Below are positions 9,640 through 55,110 of a DNA stretch of 64,000 nucleotides, piece by piece; the first letter of the stretch is position 1, and the number at the start of each line of letters is the position of its first letter. Source of the DNA: Eledone cirrhosa (Eukaryota); contig OZ024741.1 of NCBI GenBank assembly GCA_964016885.1, positions 223,696,001 through 223,760,000 of the forward strand, written 5' to 3'. The notes below the pieces were generated by a model that was not told the DNA's origin, did no database searches, and worked only from the letters and a program-made list of their open reading frames with translations. A program made the position numbers and the translations under genes.

Positions 9640-12600
9640 TGGTGACAATGATGGTATATATATGGTGATATTGGTTGTGGTGACAATGATGGTTTATATA
9701 TGGTGATAGTGGAGGTGGTGGAGGTGGTGACAATGATGGTATGTATATGGTGATAGTGGAGGTGGTGGAGGTGGTGACAATGATGGTATATATATGGTGG
9801 TGGTGGTGGTGACAATGATGGTATGTATATGGTGATAGTGGAGATGGTGGAGGTGGTGACAATGATGGTATATATATGGTGATAGTGGAGGTGGTGGAGG
9901 TGGTGACAATGATGGTATATATATGGTGGTGGTGGAGGTGGTGGAGGTGGTGACAATGATGGTATGTATATGGTGATAGTGGAGGTGGTGGAGGTGGTGA
10001 CAATGATGGTATATATATGGTGATAGTGGAGGTGGTGGAGGTGGTGACAATGATGGTATATATATGGTGGTGGTGGTGGTGACAATGATGGTATGTATAT
10101 GGTGATAGTGGAGATGGTGGAGGTGGTGACAATGATGGTATATATATGGTGATAGTGGAGGTGGTGGAGGTGGTGACAATGATGGTATATATATGGTGGT
10201 GGTGGAGGTGGTGGAGGTGGTGACAATGATGGTATATATATGGTGGTAGTGGAGGTGGTGGAGGTGGTGACAATGATGGTATATATATGGTGATAGTGGA
10301 GGTGGTGGAGGTGGTGACAATGATGGTATATATATGGTGGTGGTGGAGGTGGTGGAGGTGGTGACAATGATGGTATATATATGGTGGTAGTGGAGGTGGT
10401 GACAATGATGGTATATATATGGTGATAGTGGAGGTGGTGGAGGTGGTGACAATGATGGTATATATATGGTGGTGGTGGAGGTGGTGGAGGTGGTGACAAT
10501 GATGGTATGTATATGGTGGTGGTGGAGGTGGTGGAGGTGGTGACAATGATGGTATATATATGGTGATAGTGGAGGTGGTGGAGGTGGTGACAATGATGGT
10601 ATATATATGGTGGTGGTGGAGGTGGTGGCAATGATGATATGTATATGGTGGAGGTGGTGGTGGTGGTGACAATGATGGTATATATATGGTGATAGTGGAG
10701 GTGGTGAAGGTGGTGACAATGATGGTATGTATATGGTGATAGTGGAGGTGGTGGAGGTGGTGACAATGATGGTATGTATATGGTGATAGTGGAGGTGGTG
10801 GTGGTGGTGACAATGATGGTATATATATGGTGATAGTGGAGGTGGTGGTGGTGGTGACAATGATGGTATGTATATGGTGATAGTGGAGGTGGTGGAGGTG
10901 GTGACAATGATGGTATATATATGGTGGTAGTGGAGGTGGTGACAATGATGGTATGTATATGGTGATAGTGGAGGTGGTGGAGGTGGTGACAATGATGGTA
11001 TATATATGGTGATAGTGGAGGTGGTGGAGGTGGTGACAATGATGGTATGTATATGGTGATAGTGGAGGTGGTGGTGGTGGTGACAATGATGGTATGTATA
11101 TGGTGATAGTGGAGGTGGTGGTGGTGGTGACAATGATGGTATGTATATGGTGGTGGTGGAGGTGGTGGTGGTGGTGACAATGATGGTATATATATGGTGA
11201 TAGTGGAGGTGGTGGTGGCGGTGGTGACAATGATGGTATGTATATGGTGATAGTGGAGGTGGTGGAGGTGGTGACAATGATGGTATATATATGGTGATAG
11301 TGGAGGTGGTGGAGGTGGTGGTGACAATGATGGTATATATATGGTGATAGTGGAGGTGGTGGTGGTGGTGGTGACAATGATGGTATGTATATGGTGGTGG
11401 TGGAGGTGGTGGTGGTGGGGACAATGATGGTATATATATGGTGATAGTGGAGGTGGTGGTGGCGGTGGTGACAATGATGGTATGTATATGGTGATAGTGG
11501 AGGTGGTGGAGGTGGTGACAATGATGGTATATATATGGTGATAGTGGAGGTGGTGGAGGTGGTGACAATGATGGTATATATATGGTGATAGTGGAGGTGG
11601 TGGAGGTGGTGACAATGATGGTATATATATGGTGGTGGTGGTGGTGACAATGATGGTATGTATATGGTGATAGTGGAGATGGTGGAGGTGGTGACAATGA
11701 TGGTATATATATGGTGATAGTGGAGGTGGTGGAGGTGGTGACAATGATGGTATATATATGGTGATAGTGGAGGTGGTGGAGGTGGTGACAATGATGGTAT
11801 GTATATGGTGATAGTGGAGGTGGTGGTGGTGGTGACAATGATGGTATGTATATGGTGATAGTGGAGGTGGTGGTGGTGGTGACAATGATGGTATGTATAT
11901 GGTGATAGTGGAGGCGGTGGTGGTGGTGACAATGATGGTAGTGGAGGTGGTGGTGGTGGTGACAATGATGGTATATATATGGTGGTGGTGGTGGTGGTGG
12001 TGACAATGATGGTATATATATGGTGGTGGTGGAGGTGGTGGTGGTGTTGACAATGATGGTATGTATATGGTGGTGGTGGTAGTGGTGACAATGATGGTAT
12101 ATATATGGTGATAGTGGAGGTGGTGGTGGTGGTGACAATGATGGTATGTATATGGTGATAGTGGAGGTGGTGGAGATGGTGGTGGTGGTGACAATGATGG
12201 TATGTATATGGTGATAGTGGAGGTGGTGGAGGTGGTGACATTGATGGTATGTATATGGTGATAGTGGAGGTGGTGGTGGTGGTGGTGGTGGTGACAATGA
12301 TGGTATATATATGGTGATAGTGGAGGTGGTGGTGGTGGTGACAATGATGGTATGTATATGGTGATAGTGGAGGTGGTGGTGGTGGTGACAATGATGGTAT
12401 ATATATGGTGGTGGTGGAGGTGGTGGAGGTGGTGACAATGATGGTATGTATATGGTGATAGTGGAGGTGGTGGAGATGGTGGTGGTGGTGACAATGATGG
12501 TATGTATATGGTGATAGTGGAGGTGGTGGAGGTGGTGACATTGATGGTATGTATATGGTGATAGTGGAGGTGGTGGAGGTGGTGACAATGATGGTATGTA

Positions 12601-15600
12601 TATGGTGGTGGTGGTGGTGGTGGTGGTGACAATGATGGTATATATATGGTGATAGTGGAGGTGGTGGTGGTGGTGACAATGATGGTATGTATATGGTGAT
12701 AGTGGAGGTGGTGGAGGTGGTGGTGACAATGATGGTATATATATGGTGATAGTGGAGGTGGTGGTGGTGGTGACAATGATGGTATATATATGGTGATAGT
12801 GGAGGTGGTGACAATGATGGTATATATATGGTGATAGTGGAGGTGGTGGAGGTGGTGACAATGATGGTATATATATGGTGGTGGTGGAGGTGGTGGTGGT
12901 GGTGACAATGATGGTTTATATATGGTGATAGTGGAGGTGGTGGAGGTGGTGACAATGATGGTATATATATGGTGGTGGTGGAGGTGGTGGAGGTGGTGAC
13001 AATGATGGTATATATATGGTGATAGTGGAGGTGGTGGTGGTGGTGACAATGATGGTATATATATGGTGGTGGTGGTGGTGGTGGTGGTGACAATGATGGT
13101 ATGTATATGGTGATAGTGGAGGTGGTGGTGGTGGTGACAATGATGGTATATATATGGTGGTGGTGGAGGTGGTGGTGGTGGTGACAATGATGGTTTATAT
13201 ATGGTGATAGTGGAGGTGGTGACAATGATGGTATATATATGGTGGTGGTGGAGGTGGTGACAATGATGGTATATATATGGTGATAGTGGAGGTAGTGGAG
13301 GTGGTGGTGACAATGATGGTATATATATGGTGATAGTGGAGGTGGTGGTGGTGGTGGTGACAATGATGGTATATATATGGTGATAGTGGAGGTGGTGGAG
13401 GTGGTGACAATGATGGTATATATATGGTGATAGTGGAGGTGGTGGAGGTGGTGACAATGATGGTATATATATGGTGGTGGTGGAGGTGGTGGAGGTGGTG
13501 ACAATGATGTTATGTATATGGTGGTGGTGGAGGTGGTGGTGGTGGTGACAATGATGGTATGTATATGGTGATAGTGGAGGTGGTGGAGGTGGTGACAATG
13601 ATGGTATGTATATGGTGATAGTGGAGGTGGTGGTGGAGGTGGTGACAATGATGGTATATATATGGTGATAGTGGAGGTGGTGGTGGTGGTGACAATCATG
13701 GTATGTATATGGTGGTGGTGGAGGTGGTGGCAATGATGATATGTATATGGTGGAGGTGGAGGTGGTGGAGGTGGTGACAATGATGGTATATATATGGTGA
13801 TAGTGGAGGTGGTGGTGGTGGTGACAATGATGGTATGTATATGGTGATAGTGGAGGTGGTGGAGGTGGTGACAATGATGGTATATATATGGTGATAGTGG
13901 AGGTGGTGGAGGTGGTGACAATGATGGTATATATATGGTGATAGTGGAGGTGGAGGTGGTGACAATCATGGTATATATATTGTGGTGGTGGTGGTGACAA
14001 TGATGGTATATATATGATGATAGTGGAGGTGGTGGTGGTGGTGACAATGATGGTATATATATGGTGATAGTGGAGGTGGTGTTGGTGACAATGATGGTAT
14101 ATATATGGTGATAGTGGAGGTGGTGGAGGTGGTGACAATGATGGTATATATATGGTGATAGTGGAGGTGGTGGTGGTGGTGACAATGATGGTATGTATAT
14201 GGTGATAGTGGAGGTGGTGGAGGTGGTGGTGGTGGTGACAATGATGGTATATATATGGTGGTGGTGGAGGTGGTGGTGACAATGATGGTATGTATATGGT
14301 GATAGTGGAGGTGGTGGAGGTGGTGACAATGATGGTATGTATATGGTGATAGTGGAGGTGGTGGAGGTGGTGACAATGATGGTATATATATGGTGGTAGT
14401 GGAGGTGGTGGTGGTGGTGACAATGATGGTATATATATGGTGATAGTGGAGGTGGTGGAGGTGGTGACAATGATGGTATGTATATGGTGATAGTGGAGGT
14501 GGTGGAGGTGGTGACAATGATGGTATGTATATGGTGATAGTGGAGGTGGTGGTGACAATGATGGTATATATATGGTGATAGTGGAGGTGGTAGAGGTGGT
14601 GACAATGATGGTATGTATATGGTGATAGTGGAGGTGGTGGTGGTGGTGACAATGATGGTATATATATGGTGATAGTGGAGGTGGTGGAGGTGGTGACAAT
14701 GATGGTATGTATATGGTGATAGTGGAGGTGGTGGTGGTGGTGACAATGATGGTATGTATATGGTGATAGTGGAGGTGGTGGAGGTGGTGACAATGATGGT
14801 ATATATATGGTGATAGTGGAGGTGGTGGTGGTGGTGGTGACAATGATGGTATATATATGGTGGTAGTGGAGGTGGTGGTGGTGGTGACAATGATGGTATA
14901 TATATGGTGGTAGTGGAGGTGGTGACAATGATGGTATATATATGGTGGTAGTGGAGGTGGTGACAATGATGGTATATATATGGTGGTAGTGGAGGTGGTG
15001 GTGGTGGTGACAATGATGGTATGTATATGGTGATAGTGGAGGTGGTGGAGGTGGTGACAATGATGGTATATATATGGTGGTAGTGGAGGTGGTGACAATG
15101 ATGGTATATATATGGTGATAGTGGAGGTGGTGGTGGTGGTGACAATGATGGTATATATATGGTGATAGTGGAGGTGGTGGTGGTGGTGACAATGATGGTA
15201 TATATATGGTGATAGTGGAGGTGGTGACAATGATGGTATATATATGGTGGTGGTGGAGGTGGTGGTGGTGGTGACAATGATGGTATATATATGGTGATAG
15301 TGGAGGTGGTGGAGGTGGTGACAATGATGGTATATATATGGTGGTGGTGGAGGTGGTGGTGGTGGTGACAATGATGGTTTATATATGGTGATAGTGGAGG
15401 TGGTGACAATGATGGTATATATATGGTGGTGGTGGAGGTGGTGACAATGATGGTATATATATGGTGATAGTGGAGGTGGTGGTGGTGGTGACAATGATGG
15501 TATATATATGGTGATAGTGGAGGTGGTGGTGGTGGTGGTGACAATGATGGTATATATATGGTGATAGTGGAGGTGGTGGAGGTGGTGACAATGATGGTAT

Positions 15601-18600
15601 ATATATGGTGATAGTGGAGGTGGTGGAGGTGGTGACAATGATGGTATATATATGGTGGTGGTGGAGGTGGTGGAGGTGGTGACAATGATGTTATGTATAT
15701 GGTGGTGGTGGAGGTGGTGGTGGTGGTGACAATGATGGTATGTATATGGTGATAGTGGAGGTGGTGGAGGTGGTGACAATGATGGTATGTATATGGTGAT
15801 AGTGGAGGTGGTGGTGGAGGTGGTGACAATGATGGTATATATATGGTGATAGTGGAGGTGGTGGTGGTGGTGACAATCATGGTATGTATATGGTGGTGGT
15901 GGAGGTGGTGGCAATGATGGTATGTATATGGTGGTGGTGGAGGTGGTGGAGGTGGTGACAATGATGGTATATATATGGTGATAGTGGAGGTGGTGGTGGT
16001 GGTGACAATGATGGTATGTATATGGTGATAGTGGAGGTGGTGGAGGTGGTGACAATGATGGTATATATATGGTGATAGTGGAGGTGGTGGAGGTGGTGAC
16101 AATGATGGTATATATATGGTGATAGTGGAGGTGGAGGTGGTGACAATCATGGTATATATATTGTGGTGGTGGTGGTGACAATGATGGTATATATATGATG
16201 ATAGTGGAGGTGGTGGTGGTGGTGACAATGATGGTATATATATGGTGATAGTGGAGGTGGTGTTGGTGACAATGATGGTATATATATGGTGATAGTGGAG
16301 GTGGTGGAGGTGGTGACAATGATGGTATATATATGGTGATAGTGGAGGTGGTGGTGGTGGTGACAATGATGGTATGTATATGGTGATAGTGGAGGTGGTG
16401 GAGGTGGTGGTGGTGGTGACAATGATGGTATATATATGGTGGTGGTGGAGGTGGTGGTGACAATGATGGTATGTATATGGTGATAGTGGAGGTGGTGGAG
16501 GTGGTGACAATGATGGTATGTATATGGTGATAGTGGAGGTGGTGGAGGTGGTGGTGGTGGTGACAATGATGGTATATATATGGTGATAGTGGAGGTGGTG
16601 GAGGTGGTGACAATGATGGTATATATATGGTGGTAGTGGAGGTGGTGGTGGTGGTGACAATGATGGTATATATATGGTGATAGTGGAGGTGGTGGAGGTG
16701 GTGACAATGATGGTATGTATATGGTGATAGTGGAGGTGGTGGAGGTGGTGACAATGATGGTATGTATATGGTGATAGTGGAGGTGGTGGTGACAATGATG
16801 GTATATATATGGTGATAGTGGAGGTGGTAGAGGTGGTGACAATGATGGTATGTATATGGTGATAGTGGAGGTGGTGGTGGTGGTGACAATGATGGTATAT
16901 ATATGGTGATAGTGGAGGTGGTGGAGGTGGTGACAATGATGGTATGTATATGGTGATAGTGGAGGTGGTGGTGGTGGTGACAATTATGGTATGTATATGG
17001 TGATAGTGGAGGTGGTGGAGGTGGTGACAATGATGGTATATATATGGTGATAGTGGAGGTGGTGGTGGTGGTGGTGACAATGATGGTATATATATGGTGG
17101 TAGTGGAGGTGGTGGTGGTGGTGACAATGATGGTATATATATGGTGGTAGTGGAGGTGGTGACAATGATGGTATATATATGGTGGTAGTGGAGGTGGTGA
17201 CAATGATGGTATATATATGGTGGTAGTGGAGGTGGTGGTGGTGGTGACAATGATGGTATGTATATGGTGATAGTGGAGGTGGTGGAGGTGGTGACAATGA
17301 TGGTATATATATGGTGGTAGTGGAGGTGGTGACAATGATGGTATATATATGGTGATAGTGGAGGTGGTGGTGGTGGTGACAATGATGGTATATATATGGT
17401 GATAGTGGAGGTGGTGGTGGTGGTGACAATGATGGTATATATATGGTGATAGTGGAGGTGGTGACAATGATGGTATATATATGGTGGTGGTGGAGGTGGT
17501 GGTGGTGGTGACAATGATGGTATATATATGGTGATAGTGGAGGTGGTGGTCGCGGTGGTGACAATGATGGTATGTATATGGTGATAGTGGAGGTGGTGGT
17601 GGTGGTGACAATGATGGTATATATATGGTGATAGTGGAGGTGGTGGAGGTGGTGACAATGATGGTATATATATGGTGATAGTGGAGGTGGTGGAGGTGGT
17701 GACAATGATGGTATGTATATGGTGATAGTGGAGGTGGTGGTGGTGGTGACAATGATGGTATGTATATGGTGATAGTGGAGGTGGTGGTGGTGGTGACAAT
17801 GATGGTATGTATATGGTGATAGTGGAGGCGGTGGTGGTGGTGACAATGATGGTAGTGGAGGTGGTGGTGGTGGTGACAATGATGGTATATATATGGTGGT
17901 GGTGGAGGTGGTGGTGGTGTTGACAATGATGGTATGTATATGGTGGTGGTGGTAGTGGTGACAATGATGGTATATATATGGTGATAGTGGAGGTGGTGGT
18001 GGTGGTGACAATGATGGTATATATATGGTGGTGGTGGAGGTGGTGGAGGTGGTGACAATGATGGTATATATATGGTGGTGGTGGAGGTGGTGGAGGTGGT
18101 GACAATGATGGTATGTATATGGTGATAGTGGAGGTGGTGGAGATGGTGGTGGTGGTGACAATGATGGTATGTATATGGTGATAGTGGAGGTGGTGGAGGT
18201 GGTGACATTGATGGTATGTATATGGTGATAGTGGAGGTGGTGACAATGATGGTATGTATATGGTGATAGTGGAGGTGGTGGTGGTGGTGGTGGTGGTGAC
18301 AATGATGGTATATATATGGTGATAGTGGAGGTGGTGGTGGTGGTGACAATGATGGTATGTATATGGTGATAGTGGAGGTGGTGGAGGTGGTGGTGACAAT
18401 GATGGTATATATATGGTGATAGTGGAGGTGGTGGTGGTGGTGACAATGATGGTATGTATATGGTGATAGTGGAGGTGGTGGAGGTGGTGGTGACAATGAT
18501 GGTATATATATGGTGATAGTGGAGGTGGTGGAGGTGGTGACAATGATGGTATATATATGGTGGTGGTGGAGGTGGTGGTGGTGGTGACAATGATGGTTTA

Positions 18601-21600
18601 TATATGGTGATAGTGGAGGTGGTGGAGGTGGTGACAATGATGGTATATATATGGTGGTGGTGGAGGTGGTGGAGGTGGTGACAATGATGGTATATATATG
18701 GTGGTGGTGGAGGTGGTGACAATGATGGTATATATATGGTGATAGTGGAGGTAGTGGAGGTGGTGGTGACAATGATGGTATATATATGGTGATAGTGGAG
18801 GTGGTGGTGGTGACAATGATGGTATATATATGGTGATAGTGGAGGTGGTGGAGGTGGTGACAATGATGGTATATATATGGTGATAGTGGAGGTGGTGGAG
18901 GTGGTGACAATGATGGTATATATATGGTGGTGGTGGAGGTGGTGGCGGTGGTGACAATGATGGTATATATATGGTGATAGTGGAGGTGGTGGTGGTGGTG
19001 ACAATGATGTTATGTATATGGTGGTGGTGGAGGTGGTGGTGGTGGTGACAATGATGGTATGTATATGGTGATAGTGGAGGTGGTGGAGGTGGTGGAGGTG
19101 GTGACAATGATGGTATGTATATGGTGATAGTGGAGGTGGTGGTGGAGGTGGTGACAATGATGGTATATATATGGTGATAGTGGAGGTGGTGGTGGTGGTG
19201 ACAATCATGGTATGTATATGGTGGTGGTGGAGGTGGTGGCAATGATGGTATGTATATGGTGGTGGTGGAGGTGGTGGAGGTGGTGACAATGATGGTATAT
19301 ATATGGTGATAGTGGAGGTGGTGGTGGTGGTGACAATGATGGTATGTATATGGTGATAGTGGAGGTGGTGGAGGTGGTGACAATGATGGTATATATATGG
19401 TGATAGTGGAGGTGGTGGAGGTGGTGACAATGATGGTATATATATGGTGATAGTGGAGGTGGAGGTGGTGACAATCATGGTATATATATTGTGGTGGTGG
19501 TGGTGATAATGATGGTATATATATGATGATAGTGGAGGTGGTGGTGGTGGTGACAATGATGGTATATATATGGTGATAGTGGAGGTGGTGGAGGTGGTGT
19601 TGGTGACAATGATGGTATATATATGGTGATAGTGGAGGTGGTGGAGGTGGTGACAATGATGGTATATATATGCTGATAGTGGAGGTGGTGGTGGTGGTGA
19701 CAATGATGGTATATATATGGTGGTGGTGGAGGTGGTGGTGGTGGTGACAATGATGGTATATATATGGTGATAGTGGAGGTGGTGGAGGTGGTGACAATGA
19801 TGGTATGTATATGGTGATAGTGGAGGTGGTGGAGGTGGTGGTGGTGGTGACAATGATGGTATATATATGGTGATAGTGGAGGTGGGGGAGGTGGTGACAA
19901 TGATGGTATATATATGGTGGTAGTGGAGGTGGTGGTGGTGGTGACAATGATGGTATATATATGGTGATAGTGGAGGTGGTGGAGGTGGTGATAATGATGG
20001 TATGTATATGGTGATAGTGGAGGTGGTGGAGGTGGTGACAATGATGGTATGTATATGGTGATAGTGGAGGTGGTGGAGGTGGTGGTGACAATGATGTTAT
20101 ATATATGGTGATAGTGGAGGTGGTGGAGGTGGTGACAATGATGGTATGTATATGGTGATAGTGGAGGTGGTGGTGGTGGTGACAATGATGGTATATATAT
20201 GGTGATAGTGGAGGTGGTGGAGGTGGTGACAATGATGGTATGTATATGGTGATAGTGGAGGTGGTGGTGGTGGTGACAATGATGGTATGTATATGGTGAT
20301 AGTGGAGGTGGTGGAGGTGGTGACAATGATGGTATATATATGGTGATAGTGGAGGTGGTGGTGGTGGTGGTGACAATGATGGTATATATATGGTGGTAGT
20401 GGAGGTGGTGGTGGTGGTGACAATGATGGTATATATATGGTGGTAGTGGAGGTGGTGACAATGATGGTATATATATGGTGGTAGTGGAGGTGGTGACAAT
20501 GATGGTATATATATGGTGGTAGTGGAGGTGGTGGTGGTGGTGACAATGATGGTATGTATATGGTGATAGTGGAGGTGGTGGAGGTGGTGACAATGATGGT
20601 ATATATATGGTGGTAGTGGAGGTGGTGACAATGATGGTATATATATGGTGATAGTGGAGGTGGTGGTGGTGGTGACAATGATGGTATATATATGGTGATA
20701 GTGGAGGTGGTGGTGGTGGTGACAATGATGGTATATATATGGTGATAGTGGAGGTGGTGGAGGTGGTGACAATGATGGTATATATATGGTGGTGGTGGAG
20801 GTGGTGGTGGTGGTGACAATGATGGTATATATATGGTGATAGTGGAGGTGGTGACAATGATGGTATGTATATGGTGATAGTGGAGGTGGTGGTGGTGGTG
20901 ACAATGATGGTATATATATGGTGATAGTGGAGGTGGTGGAGGTGGTGACAATGATGGTATATATATGGTGATAGTGGAGGTGGTGGAGGTGGTGACAATG
21001 ATGGTATGTATATGGTGATAGTGGAGGTGGTGGTGGTGGTGACAATGATGGTATGTATATGGTGATAGTGGAGGTGGTGGTGGTGGTGACAATGATGGTA
21101 TGTATATGGTGATAGTGGAGGCGGTGGTGGTGGTGACAATGATGGTAGTGGAGGTGGTGGTGGTGGTGACAATGATGGTATATATATGGTGGTGGTGGTG
21201 GTGGTGGTGACAATGATGGTATATATATGGTGGTGGTGGAGGTGGTGGTGGTGTTGACAATGATGGTATGTATATGGTGGTGGTGGTAGTGGTGACAATG
21301 ATGGTATATATATGGTGATAGTGGAGGTGGTGGTGGTGGTGACAATGATGGTATATATATATGGTGGTGGTGGAGGTAGTGGAGGTGGTGACAATGATGG
21401 TATGTATATGGTGATAGTGGAGGTGGTGGAGATGGTGGTGGTGGTGACAATGATGGTATGTATATGGTGATGGTGGAGGTGGTGACATTGATGGTATGTA
21501 TATGGTGATAGTGGAGGTGGTGGAGGTGGTGACAATGATGGTATGTATATGGTGATAGTGGAGGTGGTGGTGGTGGTGGTGGTGGTGACAATGATGGTAT

Positions 21601-24600
21601 ATATATGGTGATAGTGGAGGTGGTGGTGGTGGTGACAATGATGGTATGTATATGGTGATAGTGGAGGTGGTGGTGACAATGATGGTATATATATGGTGAT
21701 AGTGGAGGTGGTGGTGGTGGTGACAATGATGGTATGTATATGGTGATAGTGGAGGTGGTGGAGGTGGTGGTGACAATGATGGTATATATATGGTGATAGT
21801 GGAGGTGGTGGAGGTGGTGACAATGATGGTATATATATGGTGGTGGTGGAGGTGGTGGTGGTAGTGACAATGATGGTTTATATATGGTGATAGTGGAGGT
21901 GGTGGAGGTGGTGACAATGATGGTATATATATGGTGGTGGTGGAGGTGGTGGAGGTGGTGACAATGATGGTATATATATGGTGATAGTGGAGGTGGTGGT
22001 GGTGGTGACAATGATGGTATATATATGGTGGTGGTGGTGGTGGTGGTGGTGGTGACAATGATGGTATGTATATGGTGATAGTGGAGGTGGTGGTGGTGGT
22101 GGTGACAATGATGGTATATATATGGTGATAGTGGAGGTGGTGGAGGTGGTGACAATGATGGTATGTATATGGTGATAGTGGAGGTGGTGGAGGTGTTGAC
22201 AATGATGGTATGTATATGGTGATAGTGGAGGTGGTGGTGGTGGTGACAATGATGGTATGTATATGGTGATAGTGGAGATGGTGGAGGTGGTGACAATGAT
22301 GGTATGTATATGGTGGAGGTGGTGGTGGTGGTGACAATGATGGTATATATATGGTGATAGTGGAGGTGGTGGAGGTGGTGACAATGATGGTATATATATG
22401 GTGGTGGTGGAGGTGGTGGTGGTGGTGACAATGATGGTTTATATATGGTGATAGTGTAGGTGGTGACAATGATGGTATATATATGGTGGTGGTGGAGGTG
22501 GTGGTGGTGGTGACAATGATGGTATATATATGGTGGTGGTGGAGGTGGTGACAATGATGGTATATATATGGTGATAGTGGAGGTAGTGGAGGTGGTGGTG
22601 ACAATGATGGTATTTATATGGTGATAGTGGAGGTGGTGGTGGTGGTGGTGACAATGATGGTATATATATGGTGATAGTGGAGGTGGTGGAGGTGGTGACA
22701 ATGATGGTATATATATGGTGATAGTGGAGGTGGTGGAGGTGGTGACAATGATGGTATATATATGGTGGTGGTGGAGGTGGTGACAATGATGGTATATATA
22801 TGGTGATAGTGGAGGTGGTGGTGGTGGTGACAATGATGTTATGTATATGGTGGTGGTGGAGGTGGTGGTGGTGGTGACAATGGTGGTATGTATATGGTGA
22901 TAGTGGAGGTGGTGGAGGTGGTGACAATGATGGTATGTATATGGTGATAGTGGAGGTGGTGGTGGAGGTGGTGACAATGATGGTATATATATGGTGATAG
23001 TGGAGGTGGTGGTGGTGGTGACAATCATGGTATGTATATGGTGGTGGTGGAGGTGGTGGCAATGATGGTATGTATATGGTGGTGGTGGAGGTGGTGGAGG
23101 TGGTGACAATGATGGTATATATATGGTGATAGTGGAGGTGGTGGTGGTGGTGACAATGATGGTATGTATATGGTGATAGTGGAGGTGGTGACAATGATGG
23201 TATATATATGGTGATAGTGGAGGTGGTGGAGGTGGTGACAATGATGGTATATATATGGTGATAGTGGAGGTGGAGGTGGTGACAATCATGGTATATATAT
23301 GGTGGTGGTGGTGGTGACAATGATGGTATATATATGATGATAGTGGAGGTGGTGGTGGTGGTGACAATGATGGTATATATATGGTGATAGTGGAGGTGGT
23401 GGAGGTGGTGTTGGTGACAATGATGGTATATATATGGTGATAGTGGAGGTGGTGGAGGTGGTGACAATGATGGTATATATATGGTGATAGTGGAGGTGGT
23501 GGTGGTGGTGACAATGATGGTATGTATATGGTGATAGTGGAGGTGGTGGAGGTGGTGGTGGTGGTGACAATGATGGTATATATATGGTGGTGGTGACAAT
23601 GATGGTATGTATATGGTGATAGTGGAGGTGGTGGAGGTGGTGGTGGTGGTGACAATGATGGTATATATATGGTGATAGTGGAGGTGGTGGAGGTGGTGAC
23701 AATGATGGTATGTATATGGTGATAGTGGAGGTGGTGGTGGTGGTGACAATGATGGTATATATATGGTGGTGGTGGAGGTGGTGGTGGTGGTGACAATGAT
23801 GGTATGTATATGGTGATAGTGGAGGTGGTGGTGGTGGTGACAATGATGGTATATATATGGTGATAGTGGAGGTGGTGGAGGTGGTGACAATGATGGTATA
23901 TATATGGTGATAGTGGAGGTGGTGACAATGATGGTATATATATGGTGATAGTGGAGGTGGTGACAATGATGGTATGTATATGGTGATAGTGGAGGTGGTG
24001 GAGGTGGTGACAATGATGGTATATATATGGTGGTGGTGGTGGTGGTGACAATGATGGTATATATATGATGATAGTGGAGGTGGTGGTGGTGGTGACAATG
24101 ATGGTATATATATGGTGATAGTGGAGGTGGTGGAGGTGGTGACAATGATGGTATATATATGGTGATGGTGGAGGTGGTGGAGGTGATGACAATGATGGTA
24201 TATATATGGTGATAGTGGAGGTGGTGGAGGTGGTGACAATGATGGTATATATATGGTGATAGTGGAGGTGGTGGAGGTGGTGACAATGATGGTATATATA
24301 TGGTGATAGTGGAGGTGGTGGAGGTGGTGACAATGATGGTATATATATGGTGATAGTGGAGGTGGTGGAGGTGGTGACAATGATGGTATATATATGGTGA
24401 TAGTGGAGGTGGTGGTGGTGGTGACAATGATGGTATATATATGGTGGTGGTGGTGTTGACAATGACGGTATGTATATGGTGATTGTGGAGGTGGTGGAGG
24501 TGGTGACAATGATGGTATATATATGGTGATGGTGGAGGTGGTGGAGCTGGTGACAATGATGGTATATATATGGTGATAGTGGAGGTGGTGGAGGTGGTGA

Positions 24601-24765
24601 CAATGATGGTATGTATATGGTGATAGTGGAGGTGGTGGTGGTGGTGACAATGATGGTATATATATATATATGGTGGTGGTGGTGGAGGTGGTGGAGGTGG
24701 TGACAATGATGGTATATATATGGTGGTGGTGGAGGTGGTGGTGGTGGTGACAATGATGGTATGTA
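9640..24765. repeat. Minisatellite B: GACAATGATGGTATRTATATGGTGATAGTGGAG(GTG/GAG)n, mostly 40-58 bp units, ~15 kb
   Basis: Roughly 300 tandem units; variant markers recur in multi-kb blocks. Confidence 0.98.
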
Positions 24766-30511: not shown

Positions 30512-30847
30512 TCATCATCATTCATCATCATCATCATTTCATTTTAAGTCCGCTTTTCCCTGCTTGCAAGGGGGGGACTGGAACTGATTCTGGCTTGATT
30601 TCTACAGCTGGATGCCCTTCCTAACACCAACCTCATTTACAGTGAGTGCTGGGTGCTTTTTTGCCGTGGCACCTCCATGACCACTTTGCAGTGGAATGAT
30701 ATGGACCCCAGTCCCTATCATCTCATTTCTACAGCTGAGTAAACTGGAGCAATGTGAAATAAAGTGTCTTGCTCAAGGAAACAACACATCACCTGGTCTG
30801 AGAATTGAACTCACAACCTTTCAATTGCAAGGCCAATGCTCTAACCA

Positions 30848-30850
<3 letters not shown>
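30512..30850 (-). mobile_element. tRNA-derived SINE family A with RTE-type tail
   Basis: Reverse complement of 32285-32603. Confidence 0.9.
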
Positions 30851-30897
<47 letters not shown>

Positions 30898-31019
30898 GTA
30901 TGTATGTCAGGTCACCAGTTGGTATGTATGTATGTATGTATATACACACACACACATATATACACATATATATATACAAAGTGTTAAAACGATCAAATTT
31001 TAGTTTAGAACATTTATTT

Positions 31020-31064
31020 GCTGACAATTGTTTCTTCCAGAGGGAGGTCTGGAATCATCGGAGC
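31020..31064 (-). ncRNA. Minimal type I hammerhead ribozyme motif (U4C variant)
   Basis: Minus strand: GCU-CCGAUGA-UUCCAGA(ccuccc)UCUGGAA-GAAA-CAAUUG-UC-AGC; 7 bp stem II, palindromic stem III ACAAUUGU, GUC cleavage triplet, 3 bp stem I. Confidence 0.72.
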
Positions 31065-31159
31065 TTAGTACTTAGTACTACCCTCCATATTTATAGTTGT
31101 ATTAAACATATATGAATATAAATATTCTTATTACTATATATATATATATATATATATAT

Positions 31160-31649
31160 TTCGTTTCTGAATTTGTTTAGCAAGATTCTTTATCTGAAAT
31201 CGTGTGTTGAAACCGATATTGTTATACTTTGGGAAGGTCATGTTGCCAATAAGAAACACACGCACCAGTTGCTTTCACTTCAATTTATTATTATAATAAA
31301 TTTATAATAAATTTATAAATTTATAAATTTCTGGTTGGTTGGTTGGTTCCACAACCAGATAGTTGTTTATATATTGTCATATAAACAAAATGGCGTAGGA
31401 CAGAACAAAGGAGAGGCACAGAAACAAAGAAAGGAATCCCCAGTCACTGAAGAGGTCACAGAGTGTGTGACGAAAGAACTATGACAATATATAAACAACT
31501 ATCTGGTTGTGGAACCAACCAACCAACCAACCAGAAATTTATAAATTTATAAATTTATTATAAATTTATTATAATAATAAATTGAAGTGAAAGCAACTGG
31601 TGCATGTGTTTCTTATTGGCAACATGACCCTCCCAAAGTATAACAATAT
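31160..31649. mobile_element. TA-flanked fold-back element (Penelope-like pseudo-LTR remnant?)
   Basis: Arms 31216-31381 and 31480-31649 are near-perfect inverted repeats; the 98 bp spacer holds a hammerhead core. Confidence 0.7.
31443..31485 (+). ncRNA. Minimal type I hammerhead ribozyme motif
   Basis: GUCA-CUGAAGA-G-GUCACA(gagug)UGUGAC-GAAA-GAAC-UA-UGAC; stem I GUCA/UGAC, 6 bp stem II. Confidence 0.72.
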
Positions 31650-31922: not shown

Positions 31923-32257
31923 GGAAAAAAGATGAAATCGAAAATACAACTGGAGTTTTTTTTTTTTAAATATATATTTATTTGGTTCCTTTACCGTTTT
32001 CGCAGTTCTTCTGCTTTTCAAAAGCAGAATTGAGATGGAGGGTTTGTGGTTTTTCTCGAGAAAAACCACAAACCCTCCGTCTCAATTCTGCTTTTGAAAA
32101 GCAGAAGAACTGCGAAAACGGTAAAGGAACCAAATAAATATATATTTAAAAAAAAAAAACTCCAGTTGTATTTTCGATTTCATCTTTAACCTTATACTTT
32201 CACTCGTGTAGGACATCTCGTTTTTTTTTCATTTTGTAAAAAAAACACCACTTTCTA
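31923..32257. mobile_element. TA-flanked element with a 260 bp spacer-less palindrome and a degenerate hammerhead
   Basis: 31928-32057 is the reverse complement of 32058-32187 (one mismatch), centred on CTCGAG; 32091-32127 reads CUU-UUGAAAA-GCAG(aagaa)CUGC-GAAA-ACGG-UA-AAG. Confidence 0.7.
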
Positions 32258-32271
32258 ATATATATATATAT

Positions 32272-32603
32272 GGAGGCACATGGCTTAGTGGTTAGAGCAT
32301 TGGCCTTGCAATCGAAGGGTTGTGAGTTCAATTCTCAGACCGGGTGATGTGTTGTTTCCTTGAACAAGACACTTTATTTCACATTGCTCCAGTTTACTCA
32401 GCTGTAGAAATGAGATGATAGGGACTGGGGTCCATATCATTCCACTGCAAAGTGGTCGTGGAGCTGCCACGGCAAAAAAGCACCCAGCACTCACTGTAAA
32501 TGAGGTTGGTGTTAGGAAGGGCATCCAGCTGTAGAAATCAAGCCAGAATCAGTTCCCGTCCCACCCTTGCAAGCAGGGAAAAGCGGACGTAAAATGATGA
32601 TGT
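32272..32603 (+). mobile_element. Apparently full-length tRNA-derived SINE family A with RTE-type tail
   Basis: A box TGGCTTAGTGG, B box GAGTTCAATTC, CORE-like TTCCTTGAACAAGACACTTTA; tail ACCCTTGCAAGCAGGGAAAAGCGGACGTAAAATGATGATG identical to the LINE end at 37091-37130. Confidence 0.92.
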
Positions 32604-34679: not shown

Positions 34680-37132
34680 ACCTATAAATCAGGCGAGCAC
34701 ATAGGCCAAATTGACTTCCTGCTAGTTAGACAGCAAGACAGACAGATCGTGTCAAATACTAAGGCATACTCCACAGCATAAGTTAGTCATTAGTGACATC
34801 TCAGTAAGCAAGAGAAAGAATGAGACATACAGGAAGGTGTGAAAAAAAAGAAAGGTCTGGAAGCTAAAAGACCTTTCATTAAAATATAAATTTAGCAAAG
34901 CCCTTCAAGATGTGTATGACGAAAAAGAAGACGATTTAGAGTTGTATGACATAGATGATAACTGGAATTTCTTGCGTGACAACTTACTGCAGGCTACTGA
35001 AGAAACTTGTGGCTAGGGCAGAGCTTCAACCAGACAGAGAGTGACCTGGTGGTGGAACAGCACAGTAGATAGAGCCATTAGAGACAAAAGACTGGCATGG
35101 AAGGCTTGGAAAAATGGTGGGATTAGAGAAGGATACACAGCCGCTAAGAGAGAAGCTAGACGTCAGGTGTACTTAGCACGCAGGGAGGCTGAGAGTAGGA
35201 GGTTTGCCAATGTTCTGCGACGGGAAGATCAGAGGCGTGCGGTGTTCCACATTGCAAGGCAGTGTGTCAGTGCGAATCAGGATGTTGTTGGAGATAAATG
35301 TGTCCGGAATGATGCCGGTGTATTTAGTGCCACAAATGATCAAAAAAAGGAAGCCTGGAAATGTCATTATGAGAGGCTGATGAATGTGGAGAACGAATGA
35401 GAGAGAGAGAAATTACTCCCGGTAGACCCGACAGAGGGACCAGCTATTGAGATTGACGAATATAGGGTACAAGAGGCAATTAAGGAAATGAAGAATGGTA
35501 AGGCTGCTGGACCGTCGGGGATAGTTGCTAAGATGCTGAAGGCATCAGGAGAAGTAGGCACTAAACTGGTTGCAAGCATCATCAATCAAGCTATATATGG
35601 TAGTGTCATACCCAAAGACTGGTGCAGCAATATTCTCATAAATTGCTATAAAGGTAAAGGGGATGCTCTGGAGAGGAGCAATTATAGGGGCATAAAGCTG
35701 ATGGATCAGGTTATGAAAGTGGCAGAGAGAATATTAGCGCAACTCATTAGAGAAAGGGTCAAATTTGATGAGATGCAGTTTGGTTTTGTGCCTGGGAAAA
35801 GTACAACAGATGCCCTCTTCTTAGTGAGACAACTACAAGAGAGGTTCTTAGAGAAGAATAAGCCACTATACTTAGCTTTTGATGACCTAGGGAAGGCCTT
35901 TGACAGGGTACCCCAATCTGTCATCTGGTGGTCTCTAAGGAAACTAGGTGTAGAGGAATGGCTTGTGAGGGACAGTGCAAGCTATGTACAGAGGTACTGT
36001 CAGTAAAGTGAGAGTAGGAATGTAGTTTAGTGAGGAATTCCAGATACAAGTAGGTGTACATCAGGGTTCGGTCCTCAGCCCGCACTTGTTCATTATAGTC
36101 CTCCAAGCCATAACAGAGGAGTTTAAGACTGGATGCCCATGGGAACTTCTCTATGCTGATGATCTGGTTCTTATAGCAGAATCAGTAGAGGAGCTTAGAG
36201 AATAAATTCTGGCTATGGAAACAGCAGTTGGAATTAAGAGGACTGAGAGTGAACATAGCTAAGACAAAAGTGTTGATAAGTAGAAAAGAGGACAAAACTC
36301 TGATTCCATCAGGGAAATGGCCATATTCGATATGTAGAAAAGGAACTGGCATAAATTCCATAAAATGTCCCAATGCAGATCTTGGGTACACAAGAGATGT
36401 AGTGGGATAGCAGGCAAACTAACAGGTAGGGAAAACTAAGTATGCAGTAGATGTACAAGGAAAGTTGGCAGTAGTAATCGCAGTGATAGACACATTTTTC
36501 CAATGCAGGTGGGTTCTATAGAAGTTGTTGATAGCTTCTGGTACCTAGGTGATCAGATTAGCATGGGAAGGGGGCGGGGGTCCGAGGCCATAGTATCTAG
36601 AATAAGGACGGGTTGAAAGAAATTTAGGGAGCTGCTTCCTCTGTTGACAAAGAAGCGCTCCTCCCTGTGTACGAAAGGACGGTTGTATGATGCCTGTGTG
36701 AGATGCACGATGCTGCATGGTAGCGAGACATGGGCAGCAACTGCAGAGGATATGCAACGGCTGGAGAGAAATGAAACAAGCATGCTCCGTTGGATGTGCA
36801 ATGTCAATGTGCGTGAACGACCAAGCATAGACGAGTTGAGAAAGAAACTGGGTATAAGAGGGATAAGTTGTGGTGTGCAGGAGAGAAAACTGAGATGGTA
36901 TGGACATGTGATACGCATGGAGGATGACCACTGGGTAAAGAAGTGCCAAGAAATCCCAGTAGAAGGAAGACACAATAGAAAAACATGGGCGGAGGTGGTG
37001 AGAGCAGACTTCAGATCGCTGAAACTCACAGAGGAGATGACAAAGGAACGTAACAAGTGGAGAGATGCTGTGCTAAATAGGACCCATCCGACCCTTGCAA
37101 GCAGGGAAAAGCGGACGTAAAATGATGATGAG
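34680..37132 (+). mobile_element. 5'-truncated, decayed RTE-clade LINE (end of APE endonuclease, RT, PHD-like finger)
   Basis: YKSGEHIGQIDFLL; KAAGPSG; KGKGDALERSNYRGIKL; QFGF; DLGKAFDRV; YADD at 36152-36163; LRWYGHV; (GAT)n tail; several stops and frameshifts. Confidence 0.96.
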
Positions 37133-40116: not shown

Positions 40117-41780
40117 GGCCACATAGCTATGTAGTGTCTTGTCAGCAGGCCACACAGCTATGTAGTGTCTTGTCAGCAGGCCACATACCTATATAGTGTC
40201 TTGTCAGCAGGCCATATAGCTATGTAGTGTCTTGTCAGCAGGCCATATAGCTATGTAGTGTCTTGTCAGCAGGCCATATAGCTATGTAGTGTCTTGTCAG
40301 CAGGCCACATAGCTATGTAGTGTCTTGTCAGCAGGCCACACAGCTATGTAGTGTCTTGTCAGCAGGCCACACAGCTATGTAGTGTCTTGTCAGCAGGCCA
40401 CACAGCTATGTAGTGTCTTGTCAGCAGGCCACACAGCTATGTAGTGTCTTGTCAGCAGGCCACACAGCTATGTAGTGTCTTGTCAGCAGGCCACATAGCT
40501 ATGTAGTGTCTTGTCAGCAGGCCACACAGCTATGTAGTGTCTTGTCAGCAGGCCACATACCTATGTAGTGTCTTGTCAGCAGGCCATATAGCTATGTAGT
40601 CTTTTGTCAGCAGGCCACACAGCTATGTAGTGTCTTGTCAGCAGGCCATATAGCTATGTAGTGTCTTGTCAGCAGGCCACACAGCTATGTAGTGTCTTGT
40701 CAGCAGGCCATATAGCTATGTAGTGTCTTGTCAGCAGGCCATATAGCTATGTAGTGTCTTGTCAGCAGGCCATATAGCTATGTAGTGTCTTGTCAGCAGG
40801 CCACACAGCTATGTAGTGTCTTGTCAGCAGGCCACACAGCTATGTAGTGTCTTGTCAGCAGGCCATATAGCTATGTAGTGTCTTGTCAGCAGGCCACACA
40901 GCTATGTAGTGTCTTGTCAGCAGGCCATATAGCTATGTAGTGTCTTGTCAGCAGGCCATATAGCTATGTAGTGTCTTGTCAGCAGGCCATATAGCTATGT
41001 AGTGTTTTGTCAGCAGGCCACACAGCTATGTAGTGTCTTGTCAGCAGGCCACATAGCTATGTAGTGTCTTGTCAGCAGGCCACACAGCTATGTAGTGTCT
41101 TGTCAGCAGGCCACATACCTATGTAGTGTCTTGTCAGCAGGCCATATAGCTATGTAGTCTTTTGTCAGCAGGCCACACAGCTATGTAGTGTCTTGTCAGC
41201 AGGCCATATAGCTATGTAGTGTCTTGTCAGCAGGCCACACAGCTATGTAGTGTCTTGTCAGCAGGCCATATAGCTATGTAGTGTCTTGTCAGCAGGCCAT
41301 ATAGCTATGTAGTGTCTTGTCAGCAGGCCATATAGCTATGTAGTGTCTTGTCAGCAGGCCACACAGCTATGTAGTGTCTTGTCAGCAGGCCACACAGCTA
41401 TGTAGTGTCTTGTCAGCAGGCCATATAGCTATGTAGTGTCTTGTCAGCAGGCCACACAGCTATGTAGTGTCTTGTCAGCAGGCCATATAGCTATGTAGTG
41501 TCTTGTCAGCAGGCCATATAGCTATGTAGTGTCTTGTCAGCAGGCCATATAGCTATGTAGTGTTTTGTCAGCAGGCCACACAGCTATGTAGTGTCTTGTC
41601 AGCAGGCCACACAGCTATGTAGTGTCTTGTCAGCAGGCCATATAGCTATGTAGTGTCTTGACAGCAGGCCATATAGCTATGTAGTGTCTTGTCAGCAGGC
41701 CATATAGCTATGTAGTGTCTTGTCAGCAGGCCATATAGCTATGTAGTGTCTTGTCAGCAGGCCACATAGCTATGCAGTGT
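40117..41780. repeat. 31 bp minisatellite GGCCAYAYAGCTATGTAGTGTCTTGTCAGCA, ~53 copies, just inside a hAT-like terminus (40089-40106)
   Basis: Exact 31 bp period; preceded by AGGGGTCGGCAACCTTTT. Confidence 0.97.
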
Positions 41781-48665: not shown

Positions 48666-48769
48666 CTTCTTCAAAATCATCATCATCATCATCAAAATTA
48701 CTATAAGCAGTACCATCATTGTCAATATCATCAGCATCATCAAAATTACTATAAGCATATATATATATA

Positions 48770-49105
48770 TGGCTTAGTGGATAGAGCATTGACCTTGCAA
48801 TCGAAAGGTTGTGAGTTCAATTCTCGGACCGGGTGATGTGTTGTTTCCTTGAGCAAGACACTTTATTTCACATTGCTCCAGTTTATCCAGCTGTAGAAAT
48901 GAGATGATAGGAACTGGGGTCCCTATCATTCCACTGCAAAGTGGTCGTGGAGGTGCCACGGCAAAAAAGCACCCAGCACTCACTGTAAATGAGGTTGGTG
49001 TTAGGAAGGGCATCCAGCTGTAGAAATCAAGCCAGAATCAGTTCCCGTCCCACCCTTGCAAGCAGGGAAAAAGCGGACGTAAAATGAAATGATGATGATG
49101 ATGAT
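48770..49105 (+). mobile_element. SINE family A, near full length
   Basis: Near-identical to 32281-32603. Confidence 0.92.
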
Positions 49106-51759: not shown

Positions 51760-54700
51760 AAATAACCAACAGCGACTACTTAATTATTGGTGGCGACCTA
51801 AACGGTCACGTTGGACAACATAGTGATGGCTATGATGGAATCCATGGAGGATATGGGGTTGGAAATAGAAATGAGGAGGGCTTCAGAATCTTGGAATTCT
51901 GTGACGCTAATAATCTATCTGTAACACAAACTTCAAAAAATGAGAAAACCACTTGATCGCTTATAGATCAGGGGAACAAGCCAGCCAGATAGATTATATC
52001 CTTACTAGAAGACGTGACAAAGTGTCTGTTGTAAACACTAAATCTCTCCCCCGTGAAGAATGCATCTCCCAACATAGCCTAGTAGTTGGTGACCTCATTG
52101 TCAGGAATAGACGTACTCGACGACAGAGGAGGCCTACCTTGAAGAGAAGAATATGGAAGTTGAAGGACCCCACAGCCAGTGACAAATTTAAAAGCTTATT
52201 ACTTGATGCCTTTGACAATAAGGAAGAGCAATTAAAGACGTGCAATATAGAGGAACAGTGGGAATTCTTGAAAGTGAACCTGCTGAAAGCAATAGATGAA
52301 ATCTGTGGCTGGAGCAGACCTATAGGCAGGAGGAGAGTAACTTGGTGGTGGAACAGTAAGGTGGAGGAGACAATCAAGGCCAAAAATCAGCCTTGGAAAG
52401 TATGGCAGGATGGGGGAAGTAGAGAGCACTATCAAGTGGCCAGGAGAGAAGCTACCTTGCAAAAAGGGAAGCAGAGGATGGAAAGTTCAAGCATGTTCTA
52501 CAACTTGAGGACCAAAAACGTGAGGTGTTCAGGATTGCTAGACAATGTGTCAAGGAAAACCGTGATATTGTCGGGGAGAAGTGTGTCCATAATGATAACG
52601 GTGTACTTGCCCTCACTCATACTGATAAGAAGATAGCCTGGAAGTGTCACTACAAGAGACTATTAAATGAGGAGAATAAATGGGAAAAAGATAGTCTGCC
52701 CCAAATCGATCCAATAGAAGGACCAGCGGTGCAAGTTAAAGGTAGTATAATAAGTAAGGCAATCAAAGATATGAAGACACGCAAGGCAGCTGGGCCTTCA
52801 GAGATAGTTGCTGAGATGTTGAAGGCATCTGGAATGGTGGAACATACTATGGTCACCCGTATAGTTAACCAAGTAATACAGAAGGGGTCATACCAAAAGA
52901 CTGGCGTAGCAGCATCATCATTAACTGCTACAAGGGTAAAGGGGATGCTCTAGATAGGGGAAACTATCGAGGCATTAAGTTAGTTGACCATGTCATGAAG
53001 GTCACAGAAAGAGTTATAGCGCAACTAATCAGAGAGCGAATTGATCTAGATGAAATGCAGTTTGGGTTTGTGTCAGGTAAAAGTACCAGACGCTCTTTTC
53101 CTTGTACGACAACGACAGGAGAAGTACCTAGCTAAAAGTAAACCCCTCTACTTAGCTTTTGTAGACCTGGAGAAAGCCTTTGACAGAGTCCCCCGCTCCA
53201 TTATCTGGTGGGCTCTTAGAAAACTAGGTGTAGATGAATGGCTTGTGAGAGCTATACAAGCTATGTATAAAGAAACAGTCAGTAAGGTTAGAATTAACAA
53301 TGAATATTGTGAAGAATTTAGTGTAAAAGTTGGTGTTCATCAAGGCTCTGTCCTTAGCCCCCTCCTATTTATTATTGCCCTTCAGGCTATAACAGAGGAG
53401 TTCAAGACCGGCTGCCCATGGGAACTCCTATACGCAGATGATCTAATGCTCATAGCTGAATCTATGGCTGAACTAGAGAAGAAATTCCAAACATGGAAGC
53501 ATGTCCTAGAATCAAAAGGCCTTAAAGTTAACTTGTCTAAGACTAAAGTTCTAGTGTGTAGAAAGGAAAATAGGGCACAGGTACCCTTAGGGAAATGGCC
53601 ATGCTCAGTGTGTAGGAAAGGAGTAGGCATAAATTCCATTTTATGTCCCAAATGCAAATAAAAGATGTAGTGGGATCACAGGTAAACTATCTAAGAACGT
53701 AGACTTTATATGTGGCCGATGCTCAGGTGCAATAAGTAGCAAGTGCCCACAGGATACTAGCTCCTTCTATTGTCCAGATGGTTCTATAGAAATAGTGGAC
53801 ACCTTCCGTTACCTGGGTGATGAAATCAGCAATGGTGGAGTGTGTTCTGAAAGTACAGTAGCTAGAGTCAGAACAGGATGGAAAAAGTTCAGAGAGCTTA
53901 TACCACTGTTAGCCACAAAAGGTTTCTCTCTAAAAATGAAAGGCAGATTGTATGATGCCTGTATACGAACAACAATGTTACATGGCAGTGAGACTTGGGC
54001 ATTGTGTGCAGAGGACCTGCATAGACTAGAAAGGAATGAAGCATGCATGCTCCGTTGGATGTGTAATAGTAATATACGTGAAGGGCAAAGCATAAATGAA
54101 CTAAGTGAGAAATTAGGAATAAGAGGGATCAGATGCTGTTTACTTGAGAGAAGACTACGTTGGTATGGCCACGTGATACGCATGAAAGACGACAGCTGTA
54201 TAAAAAAGTGCAGGGCAATCAAAATTGATGGTAGTTATGGAGTAGGTAGACCCAGAAAAACCTGGGACGATCTGATAAATTCCGACCTTACACACTTACA
54301 TCTCTCTAAGACAATGTCACTGGACCGAGATCTTTGGCGCTACGCAGTAATACAGAAGACTCGCCTTGCCTATGTACAAAGCGAAACCTACAGTCAGTAG
54401 GCACCTCTTAACCAAATATACACCCCCACCCTATCCTCCCACTTCCACCAAAACCACCCTCTCTCTGTAAAGTTGGTACCACAACATCCAGTCCAAATTA
54501 ATGAGATCAAGATCGTGTAGGTGTCACGACAAAAACACACAGTCCACGCTGTAATGTGGCCGTGTAGGTAACACGGTAAAAAGTTCCCAGTCCACACTGT
54601 AAATGTGGTTGGTGTTAGGAAGGGCATCCAGTCATAGAAAACCTGCCAGATAGTCCTATATGAGCAAGACACGGTCACCCGACCAACCTTGCCTCAAGTG

Positions 54701-54760
54701 GGACAACTCCCCTCTAACCTATGCTAGCGTGGAAGATGGATGTTAAACGATGATGATGAT
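51760..54760 (+). mobile_element. 5'-truncated, decayed RTE-clade LINE (APE, RT, PHD-like finger, ~360 bp 3' UTR)
   Basis: IIGGDLNGHVG; QIDYIL; SQHSLVV; DLEKAFDRV; GVHQGSVLSPLLF; YADD at 53431-53442; FRYLG; LRWYGHV; (GAT)n tail; multiple frameshifts. Confidence 0.97.
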
Positions 54761-54775
54761 ATATATATATATATA

Positions 54776-55110
54776 TAAATAGATACGACATACCTTTCAA
54801 TCACCTTGCATTTGGGAGGTTGATTTGGTAGTCAAATCAACCAAATCAACCTCCCAAATGCAAGGTGATTGAAAGGTATGTCGTATCTATTTATTTATAA
54901 GACTGTTTATATTGTATTTTGTCTGAAGATGGCATAACATATTGTTAATATGATATCCCTGAAATATATATAACGAAATAAATATGGTTTTATAAATATA
55001 GTTTCCATTTATTTAATATCATAAATATACTCCAAATACTTGTTGAGTGCTTTTATATCAGTTATAAATATTTACTCGTTGTTAACCCAACAATTTAAAT
55101 ATAACTTTCC
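54776..55110 (+). mobile_element. TA-flanked element with 5' hairpin and hammerhead (Penelope-like remnant?)
   Basis: Perfect 54 bp inverted arms 54776-54829 and 54840-54893; hammerhead motif downstream; (TA)n on both sides. Confidence 0.7.
54915..54980 (+). ncRNA. Type I hammerhead ribozyme motif
   Basis: UAUUUUGU-CUGAAGA-U-GGcAUAaCAUAUU(guu)AAUAUGaUAUcCC-U-GAAA-UAUAUA-UA-ACGAAAUA; 8 bp stem I with one G-U, palindromic stem III. Confidence 0.7.

Follow-up and report, generated by a model that had tools for sequence, protein, structure and literature searches.

The question raised by this locus is whether a hammerhead-like motif that departs from the canonical catalytic core at a single position can be the self-cutting site of a mobile element. 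The motif lies on the minus strand at 31064-31020 of the 64-kb stretch of DNA analyzed here (the window), where an initial annotation had described a compact hammerhead and treated the C at core position 4 (C4) as a deviation of this copy. We propose, with a probability of roughly 60%, that the locus is a shortened copy of an abundant family carrying C4, likely the 3′ end of a Hydra-type Penelope-like element (PLE) or a derivative of one, whose RNA is predicted to be a slow self-cutter working as a dimer. The parts discussed below are as follows.

30977-31134, minus strand: whole insert of ∼158 bp (part A joined to part B), between TA-rich microsatellites; an internally deleted derivative of a longer repeat
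31066-31134, unstranded: part A, a further repeated segment from the same element, containing a TATA-like word and a 6-bp hairpin; in the window copy, 31063-31060 is the predicted pairing partner of its GGAG
31135-31159, unstranded: (TA)n flank
31062-31064, minus strand: stem I 5′ strand, 3 nt remaining in the window copy; family copies differ upstream of it and gain one pair or more
31055-31061, minus strand: core C3 C4 G5 A6 N7 G8 A9 (CCGAUGA); position 4 (31060) is C family-wide, and N7 (31057) is U or A
31035-31054, minus strand: stem-loop II, six stable pairs plus an outer position that pairs in some copies only
31031-31034, minus strand: G12 A13 A14 A15.1 (GAAA)
31024-31031, minus strand: palindromic stem III, 8 nt, a perfect palindrome without a loop
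31023, minus strand: H17, with predicted cleavage 3′ of this base; C in the window copy, A in a subfamily
30977-31022, minus strand: stem I 3′ strand, AATAAA (31018-31013), and a ∼46-nt tail ending in (TA)n

Direct reading of the minus strand bore out the arrangement first proposed for it (stem I, the core, stem II with its loop, GAAA, stem III, and C17), which is a type I motif with block order C-G-S. Stem I is 3 bp in the window copy; stem II has 7 bp (31054-31048 with 31041-31035) and encloses a 6-nt loop that is variable across family copies; and stem III (ACAAUUGU, 31031-31024) is the perfect palindrome that had been claimed. The canonical core C3 U4 G5 A6 N7 G8 A9 fails at position 4 only, the other six positions fitting, and G12 A13 A14, A15.1-U16.1, and H17 (C or A) all fit type I hammerhead requirements. 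The closing pair G10.1-C11.1 is absent: 31054 is U, A, or C, 31035 is a nearly fixed A, and the next pair is U-A. The motif also shows the traits of minimal PLE hammerheads: stem II is long and stem I short, A9 is followed by an extra base, and stem III is palindromic. The intermolecular stem III duplex is predicted at −6.4 kcal/mol, and the dimer, at a predicted −24.4 kcal/mol, would be favored over two monomers at −20.4 kcal/mol. Directly after the motif lies AAATAAAT (31019-31012).

A descriptor scan that allowed one mismatch in the seven-letter core returned this motif as its sole match in 64 kb. As a null, we shuffled the window 200 times within 1-kb blocks, preserving dinucleotides, and again allowed one core mismatch. 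The loose descriptor found a match in 103 of the 200 shuffles, a stem II of at least 6 bp in 4, and such a stem II together with a palindromic stem III in 0; these thresholds were chosen after the motif had been seen. Taken by itself, the 45-mer is not folded more stably than shuffled sequence (z = −1.49), and Rfam searches of 30985-31135 with E values up to 10 gave no hammerhead family, the wider listing comprising the best 150 of 439 rows. Within the window, blastn with 30975-31140 found no second copy, and two short motifs from the family's other parts were absent. An exact 20-nt match in metagenome contigs (L001) was set aside as chance: only the pattern and a few bases match, and the contig is GC-richer and looks coding. 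Decisive support for the motif being real comes instead from copies of the family elsewhere.

These copies were found by aligning public sequencing runs to the stretch, using 7 of 13 candidate runs (X1, X4, X5, X6, X11, X12, and X13); no RNA run was among the candidates listed, which carries no information on expression. The first alignment comprised 691 contigs from X1, 6 from X4, and 1 from X5, plus 493 reads from X11; the second comprised 397 contigs from X1 and 6 from X6, plus 288 reads from X12 and 337 from X13. Runs X1, X4, X5, and X6 were picked by words in common with the window and may lean toward its sequence, while X11 to X13 were chosen by species label alone and are RAD libraries, where many of the reads derive from a few loci; X4 and X5 bear other organism labels than the remaining runs. 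Reads less than 80% alike were left out, and more distant U4 relatives would go unseen. The motif belongs to an abundant repeat family with C4 in nearly all copies, and the many copies support the earlier description of it as a repeat family's minimal hammerhead motif, of type I and dimer type. Summed contig depth of about 100,000, compared with 5 to 12 for single contigs, hints at a copy number in the thousands, although this depth is not usable as a copy number. Read starts and ends at 31026, 31029, and 30996 in X11 to X13 coincide with AATT words and are probably restriction cuts of the RAD libraries.

The implied view that C4 is a defect of the window copy finds no support, because C is the family letter in the aligned runs, occupying position 4 in 95 to 99% of reads or depth in X1, X12, and X13. 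The initial annotation had looked to a family consensus for U at this position; U occurs in only 15 of 529 raw reads (11 of 232 in X12 and 4 of 297 in X13), in 2.7% of contig depth at 31060 in X1 (278 of 10,142 depth units; 13 contigs), and in one of the four covering contigs of X6. It had also reckoned with there being no other copies, or a consensus without the core; copies proved abundant (691 contigs in one run), but the consensus core lacks the canonical U4. Depth is nearly flat across position 4 (246 to 240 in X12; 305 to 303 in X13), so U4 reads were not lost by clipping, which is thereby ruled out as the source of the C4 majority. In X4 records 11, 12, and 14, other sites account for every mismatch counted, and hence these too carry C4; record 9 has one unplaced difference. 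Because C4-G5 is a CpG, and the partner change of G5 to A also occurs (8 of 537 reads; 3 X1 contigs), the U4 minority may represent decay of the CpG, an older subfamily, or both.

The distribution of variants across the motif resembles that of a constrained ribozyme. At the 5% level, for which the table is complete, variants occurred at 1 of 11 core positions (A13, in one X5 contig at depth 2) and at 7 of 8 free positions, defined as N7, the six loop II bases, and H17; the contrast has a Fisher p of 0.001, which is indicative only, since the copies are related. At the 1% level, the rows listed fell at 2 of 11 core and 8 of 8 free positions, with 6 of 46 rows not among them; in the worst case, in which all 6 lie in the core, p rises to 0.23 and the contrast vanishes (two rows outside the motif were left out of this count). 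C3 and the stem I 5′ strand are near alignment ends and hence are covered less well. We also found a second subfamily in which 31049 and 31040 changed together, converting a stem II G-C pair to A-U. In X13 the 31049 change appears in 141 of 305 reads and the 31040 change in 139 of 305. Both are present in X4 record 11 and X6 record 10, where, in addition, N7 and H17 are A and the loop differs, yet C4 is kept. This is the only two-sided stem change seen across the family; stems I and III can pair, and no covariation was seen in them. C4 is common to source elements with at least 7 differences over 54 positions, and changes between subfamilies fall at N7, loop II, and H17 rather than at G5, A6, G8, A9, G12 to A15.1, or U16.1. 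Because the diverged sources share C4 and their differences sit at positions that hammerheads tolerate, we infer that selection probably acted on the hammerhead fold after C4 was fixed.

As for the window copy itself, most copies of the family part from it at 31064-31068 and carry other sequence upstream (229 and 82 reads in X11). By eye, stem I gains a fourth pair or more from this usual upstream sequence; the longer family stem I that the initial annotation had asked about is seen as at least 4 contiguous pairs in the loose-end consensus, the window copy having lost the extras by deletion. The same upstream sequence contains, also by eye, a short stretch complementary to the GAAAC region, which could block the core in an alternative fold. 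Part A mostly runs on into other DNA (41, 33, and 27 reads in X11 to X13); in four X1 contigs it is linked, over ∼27 nt, to the upstream of part B. Depth on part B is ∼10 times that on part A and falls off upstream, and a 1,529-nt X6 contig (record 14) carries part A with no piece of part B among the pieces listed. The simplest reading is that A and B are one element and that the window holds an internally deleted form between (TA)n runs; part A would be either the element's 5′ terminus or a second, inverted arm. In the window copy's context, the predicted pair probability of stem I is 0.0. The window copy is probably inert: it is single, its stem I has 3 bp, and the GGAG of part A upstream is predicted to pair with 31063-31060, which takes in the stem I strand as well as C3 and C4. 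A pseudoknot between loop II and part A GGAGG was considered and rejected, as loop II varies freely and part A is not the usual upstream neighbor. The TATA-like word in part A (31089-31096, minus strand), ∼25 to 30 nt before the motif, probably came to lie there by chance through the deletion.

Microsatellites and satellites abound in the AT-rich window, among them a 47-bp satellite of extreme GC skew (9677-24762; about 328 copies) and a 31-bp array (40117-41780; about 54 copies). At 31935-32190 lies a near-perfect ∼255-bp palindrome with arms of unequal length, each containing an outward-pointing hammerhead-like motif with a U3-A8 core (32094-32123, plus strand, and 32021-31992, minus strand) followed by AAATAAAT. 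Another hammerhead-like motif (54923-54972, plus strand; region 54760-55110) has a canonical core, an 8-bp stem I, and a decayed long stem II, and adjoins a palindrome at about 54760-54900. That AAATAAAT also follows the motifs placed near 32127 and 54980 was confirmed, the motifs being those at 32094-32123 and 54923-54972; both belong to other families, with only chance-level blastn matches to the insert (7 to 17 nt). Directly beside the insert, a fold-back (31245-31640) with arms of ∼140 bp gave no descriptor match. Inverted copies of a dispersed repeat (30539-30878 and 32258-32597; 340 nt, 95%) bracket this cluster of small inserts, and a third copy is at 48750-49071. We found no Penelope open reading frame (ORF) (reverse transcriptase, CxCX5C linker, and C-terminal GIY-YIG) in the insert or in the 22 of 93 window ORFs scanned; reverse transcriptase matches in 2 of the 22 were both to LINE-type proteins. 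Fragments of LINE-type reverse transcriptases lie at 35401-36003 and 53050-53658, and these may be RTE-like.

Whether C4 is compatible with cutting can be judged in part from other hammerheads. A viroid U4C variant is reported to show much less cleavage in vitro but to keep infectivity (Ambros and Flores 1998, as cited in the available part of Perreault et al., PMC3088659). In the portion available of a pairwise mutagenesis study of a type III hammerhead, every CUGA-region mutant, whether single or double, had low activity, the C3-G8 swap excepted (PMC9901934). Searching viral contigs with a single fixed stem II pattern in which position 4 was set to each of the four letters in turn, we obtained about 1,200 matches with U (an estimate; at least 120 loci), 57 with C, 9 with A, and 4 with G. 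A full three-stem fold was present in 112 of 122 for U, 44 of 57 for C (30 of 39 clusters), 1 of 9 for A, and 0 of 4 for G. By clusters with a full fold, C4 stands at 30 compared with 1 for A4 and 0 for G4; a share of 30 of 31 has p = 0.002 under a sixfold transition bias per transversion and p = 0.025 under a tenfold bias. In these comparisons C4 looks like a recurrent natural hammerhead variant. Phage ribozymes have stabilizing contacts that the minimal form here may lack. The C4 loci in viral contigs (L002-L058; n = 57, 44 with full fold, 30 clusters) show more than one strand order.

We do not place the family within the strict canonical class, whose core letter at position 4 it lacks, yet judge that it most likely works like a hammerhead. 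Under the proposed mechanism, two motifs, in tandem in one transcript or on two RNAs, would pair through the palindromic stem III; cleavage would follow the GUC or GUA at 31023, ∼46 nt before the 3′ end, so that read-through transcripts would yield unit-length RNA. This RNA would then be copied into TA repeats by a Hydra-type reverse transcriptase/endonuclease supplied in trans. C4 would lower cutting without abolishing it.

Against an active ribozyme, U4 is a defining core letter, G10.1-C11.1 is absent, and Penelope hammerheads are already slow even as dimers (PMC4209133). In the main rival, the ribozyme is catalytically dead in this family: C4 was fixed in a source copy, and the fold was kept only as a recognition or 3′-end signal for a helper reverse transcriptase, or simply by common descent. 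The departures at U4 and G10.1-C11.1 favor it. The low activity of CUGA mutants (PMC9901934, in part) fits such a dead ribozyme, as does the spread of Naiad elements without canonical hammerheads, described in the available part of Craig et al. 2021 (PMC8557442); furthermore, the U4 minority, with 13 X1 contigs compared with 3 for the partner CpG change, could be an older active form. However, variation that avoids G5, A6, G8, A9, G12 to A15.1, and U16.1 while striking N7, loop II, and H17 (from C to A, which is allowed) is the pattern of catalytic constraint, and among phage hammerheads C4 is far commoner than A4 or G4. We consider a dead ribozyme unlikely, though it deserves the most serious attention of the alternatives.

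A different possibility is that the family is not the end of a coding element but a non-LTR retrozyme, in which a short tandem monomer would be cut into units by its hammerhead, circularized, and copied into the genome by a Penelope-type enzyme. Short forms do exist in the four X1 contigs joining part B upstream to part A, and animal retrozymes carry type I hammerheads (Cervera and de la Peña 2020, PMC7229834, available in part). Set against this, the excess of part B depth that declines upstream is as expected for 5′-truncated ends, the 1,529-nt X6 contig has part A without part B among its listed pieces, and the window holds a single copy with no tandem unit; we regard the retrozyme as improbable. 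That the motif is a chance look-alike inside an ordinary repeat could be argued from the frequency of the loose descriptor in shuffles, the unexceptional fold of the 45-mer, and the Rfam result. This explanation is largely refuted, and we hold it to be very improbable indeed, because the family alignments show both copies and a variation pattern, including the stem II swap; the strict form was also absent from the shuffles, and the motif sits before AATAAA and (TA)n, as do three other hammerhead-like motifs in the window. A scrambled-order (type-SGC) hammerhead does not fit the motif: in the sequence covered, which takes in only ∼30 nt of native upstream sequence, the order is C-G-S and not the S-G-C of the definition (PMC10085705, available part).

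The reading we prefer remains a C4 family whose RNA is predicted to cut slowly as a dimer. Its strongest form, a high-copy Penelope-type family that passed through at least two rounds of expansion with an active C4 hammerhead lacking G10.1-C11.1 and working as a dimer, we put forward tentatively, at somewhat short of even odds. If it were true, the family would be a natural, family-wide U4C ribozyme, and further animal hammerhead families, including some Penelope families listed as having no hammerhead, would be hidden from CUGA-based searches. U4 has been treated as invariant and is built into descriptors that count Penelope hammerheads: in the available portions of Craig et al. 2021, all 26 Hydra rows have U4 and the descriptor used (cuganga) demands it (PMC8557442). 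A family that keeps all other constraints but has C4 thus points to a blind spot in such descriptor-based counts. The C4 majority and U4 minority in the same scaffold also make a clean natural pair for asking what cutting speed retroelements need. The hammerhead class itself is already known, and the window copy is a remnant. Among papers on CCGAUGA-type cores, judged by title or the start of the abstract, none concerned a repeat family. In the literature covered, which did not extend to Lünse et al. 2017 (small Penelope variants) or to part of the Cervera 2014 supplement, we found no family-wide C4 Penelope hammerhead, a result that does not establish absence from print.

We regard the family as probably representing the 3′ terminus of a Hydra-type PLE or its noncoding derivative. 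According to the parts available of Craig et al. 2021 (PMC8557442), Hydra-clade PLEs insert in (TA)n and carry a hammerhead near the 3′ end; in most of their motifs stem II carries an additional base on each side and stem III is 4 bp long, and in many rows the first stem II pair is other than G-C. The family resembles them in type I order, (TA)n target, near-3′-end position, stem II extra bases, and 4-bp stem III; Penelope-2_NV even has the same eight paired letters in stem III, but with a 2-nt loop. It differs in C4, in its loopless, perfectly palindromic stem III, and in the lack of an ORF in what we see here. The family sequence is not that of Hydra-1_Obim, in which the tail after the motif is 36 nt by our own count, compared with ∼46 nt here; the tails share 10 nt, a weak likeness of which ∼0.3 would be expected by chance over 25 families.

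Penelope hammerheads, as described in the available part of Cervera and de la Peña 2014 (PMC4209133), combine a long stem II with a short stem I and a palindromic stem III, carry G10.1-C11.1 and one additional base after A9, and are slow or weak even as dimers; U4 is present in 56 of 56 representatives, most with G10.1-C11.1, and the core variant reported there is U3-A8. The present family shares the long stem II, the short stem I, the extra base after A9, and a palindromic stem III implying dimers, as well as an AU-rich 3′ flank and mostly single, dispersed copies; it departs from them in having C4 rather than U4 and in lacking G10.1-C11.1. Like animal retrozymes, it is a noncoding repeat with a type I hammerhead, but unlike them it shows no tandem monomer array in the window. 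With the viroid U4C variant and the phage C4 hammerheads it has in common the same core change in an otherwise complete fold. Those are monomer-type motifs with real stem III hairpins, whereas here the carrier of the fixed C4 is an animal repeat of high copy number whose stem III is of the dimer type.
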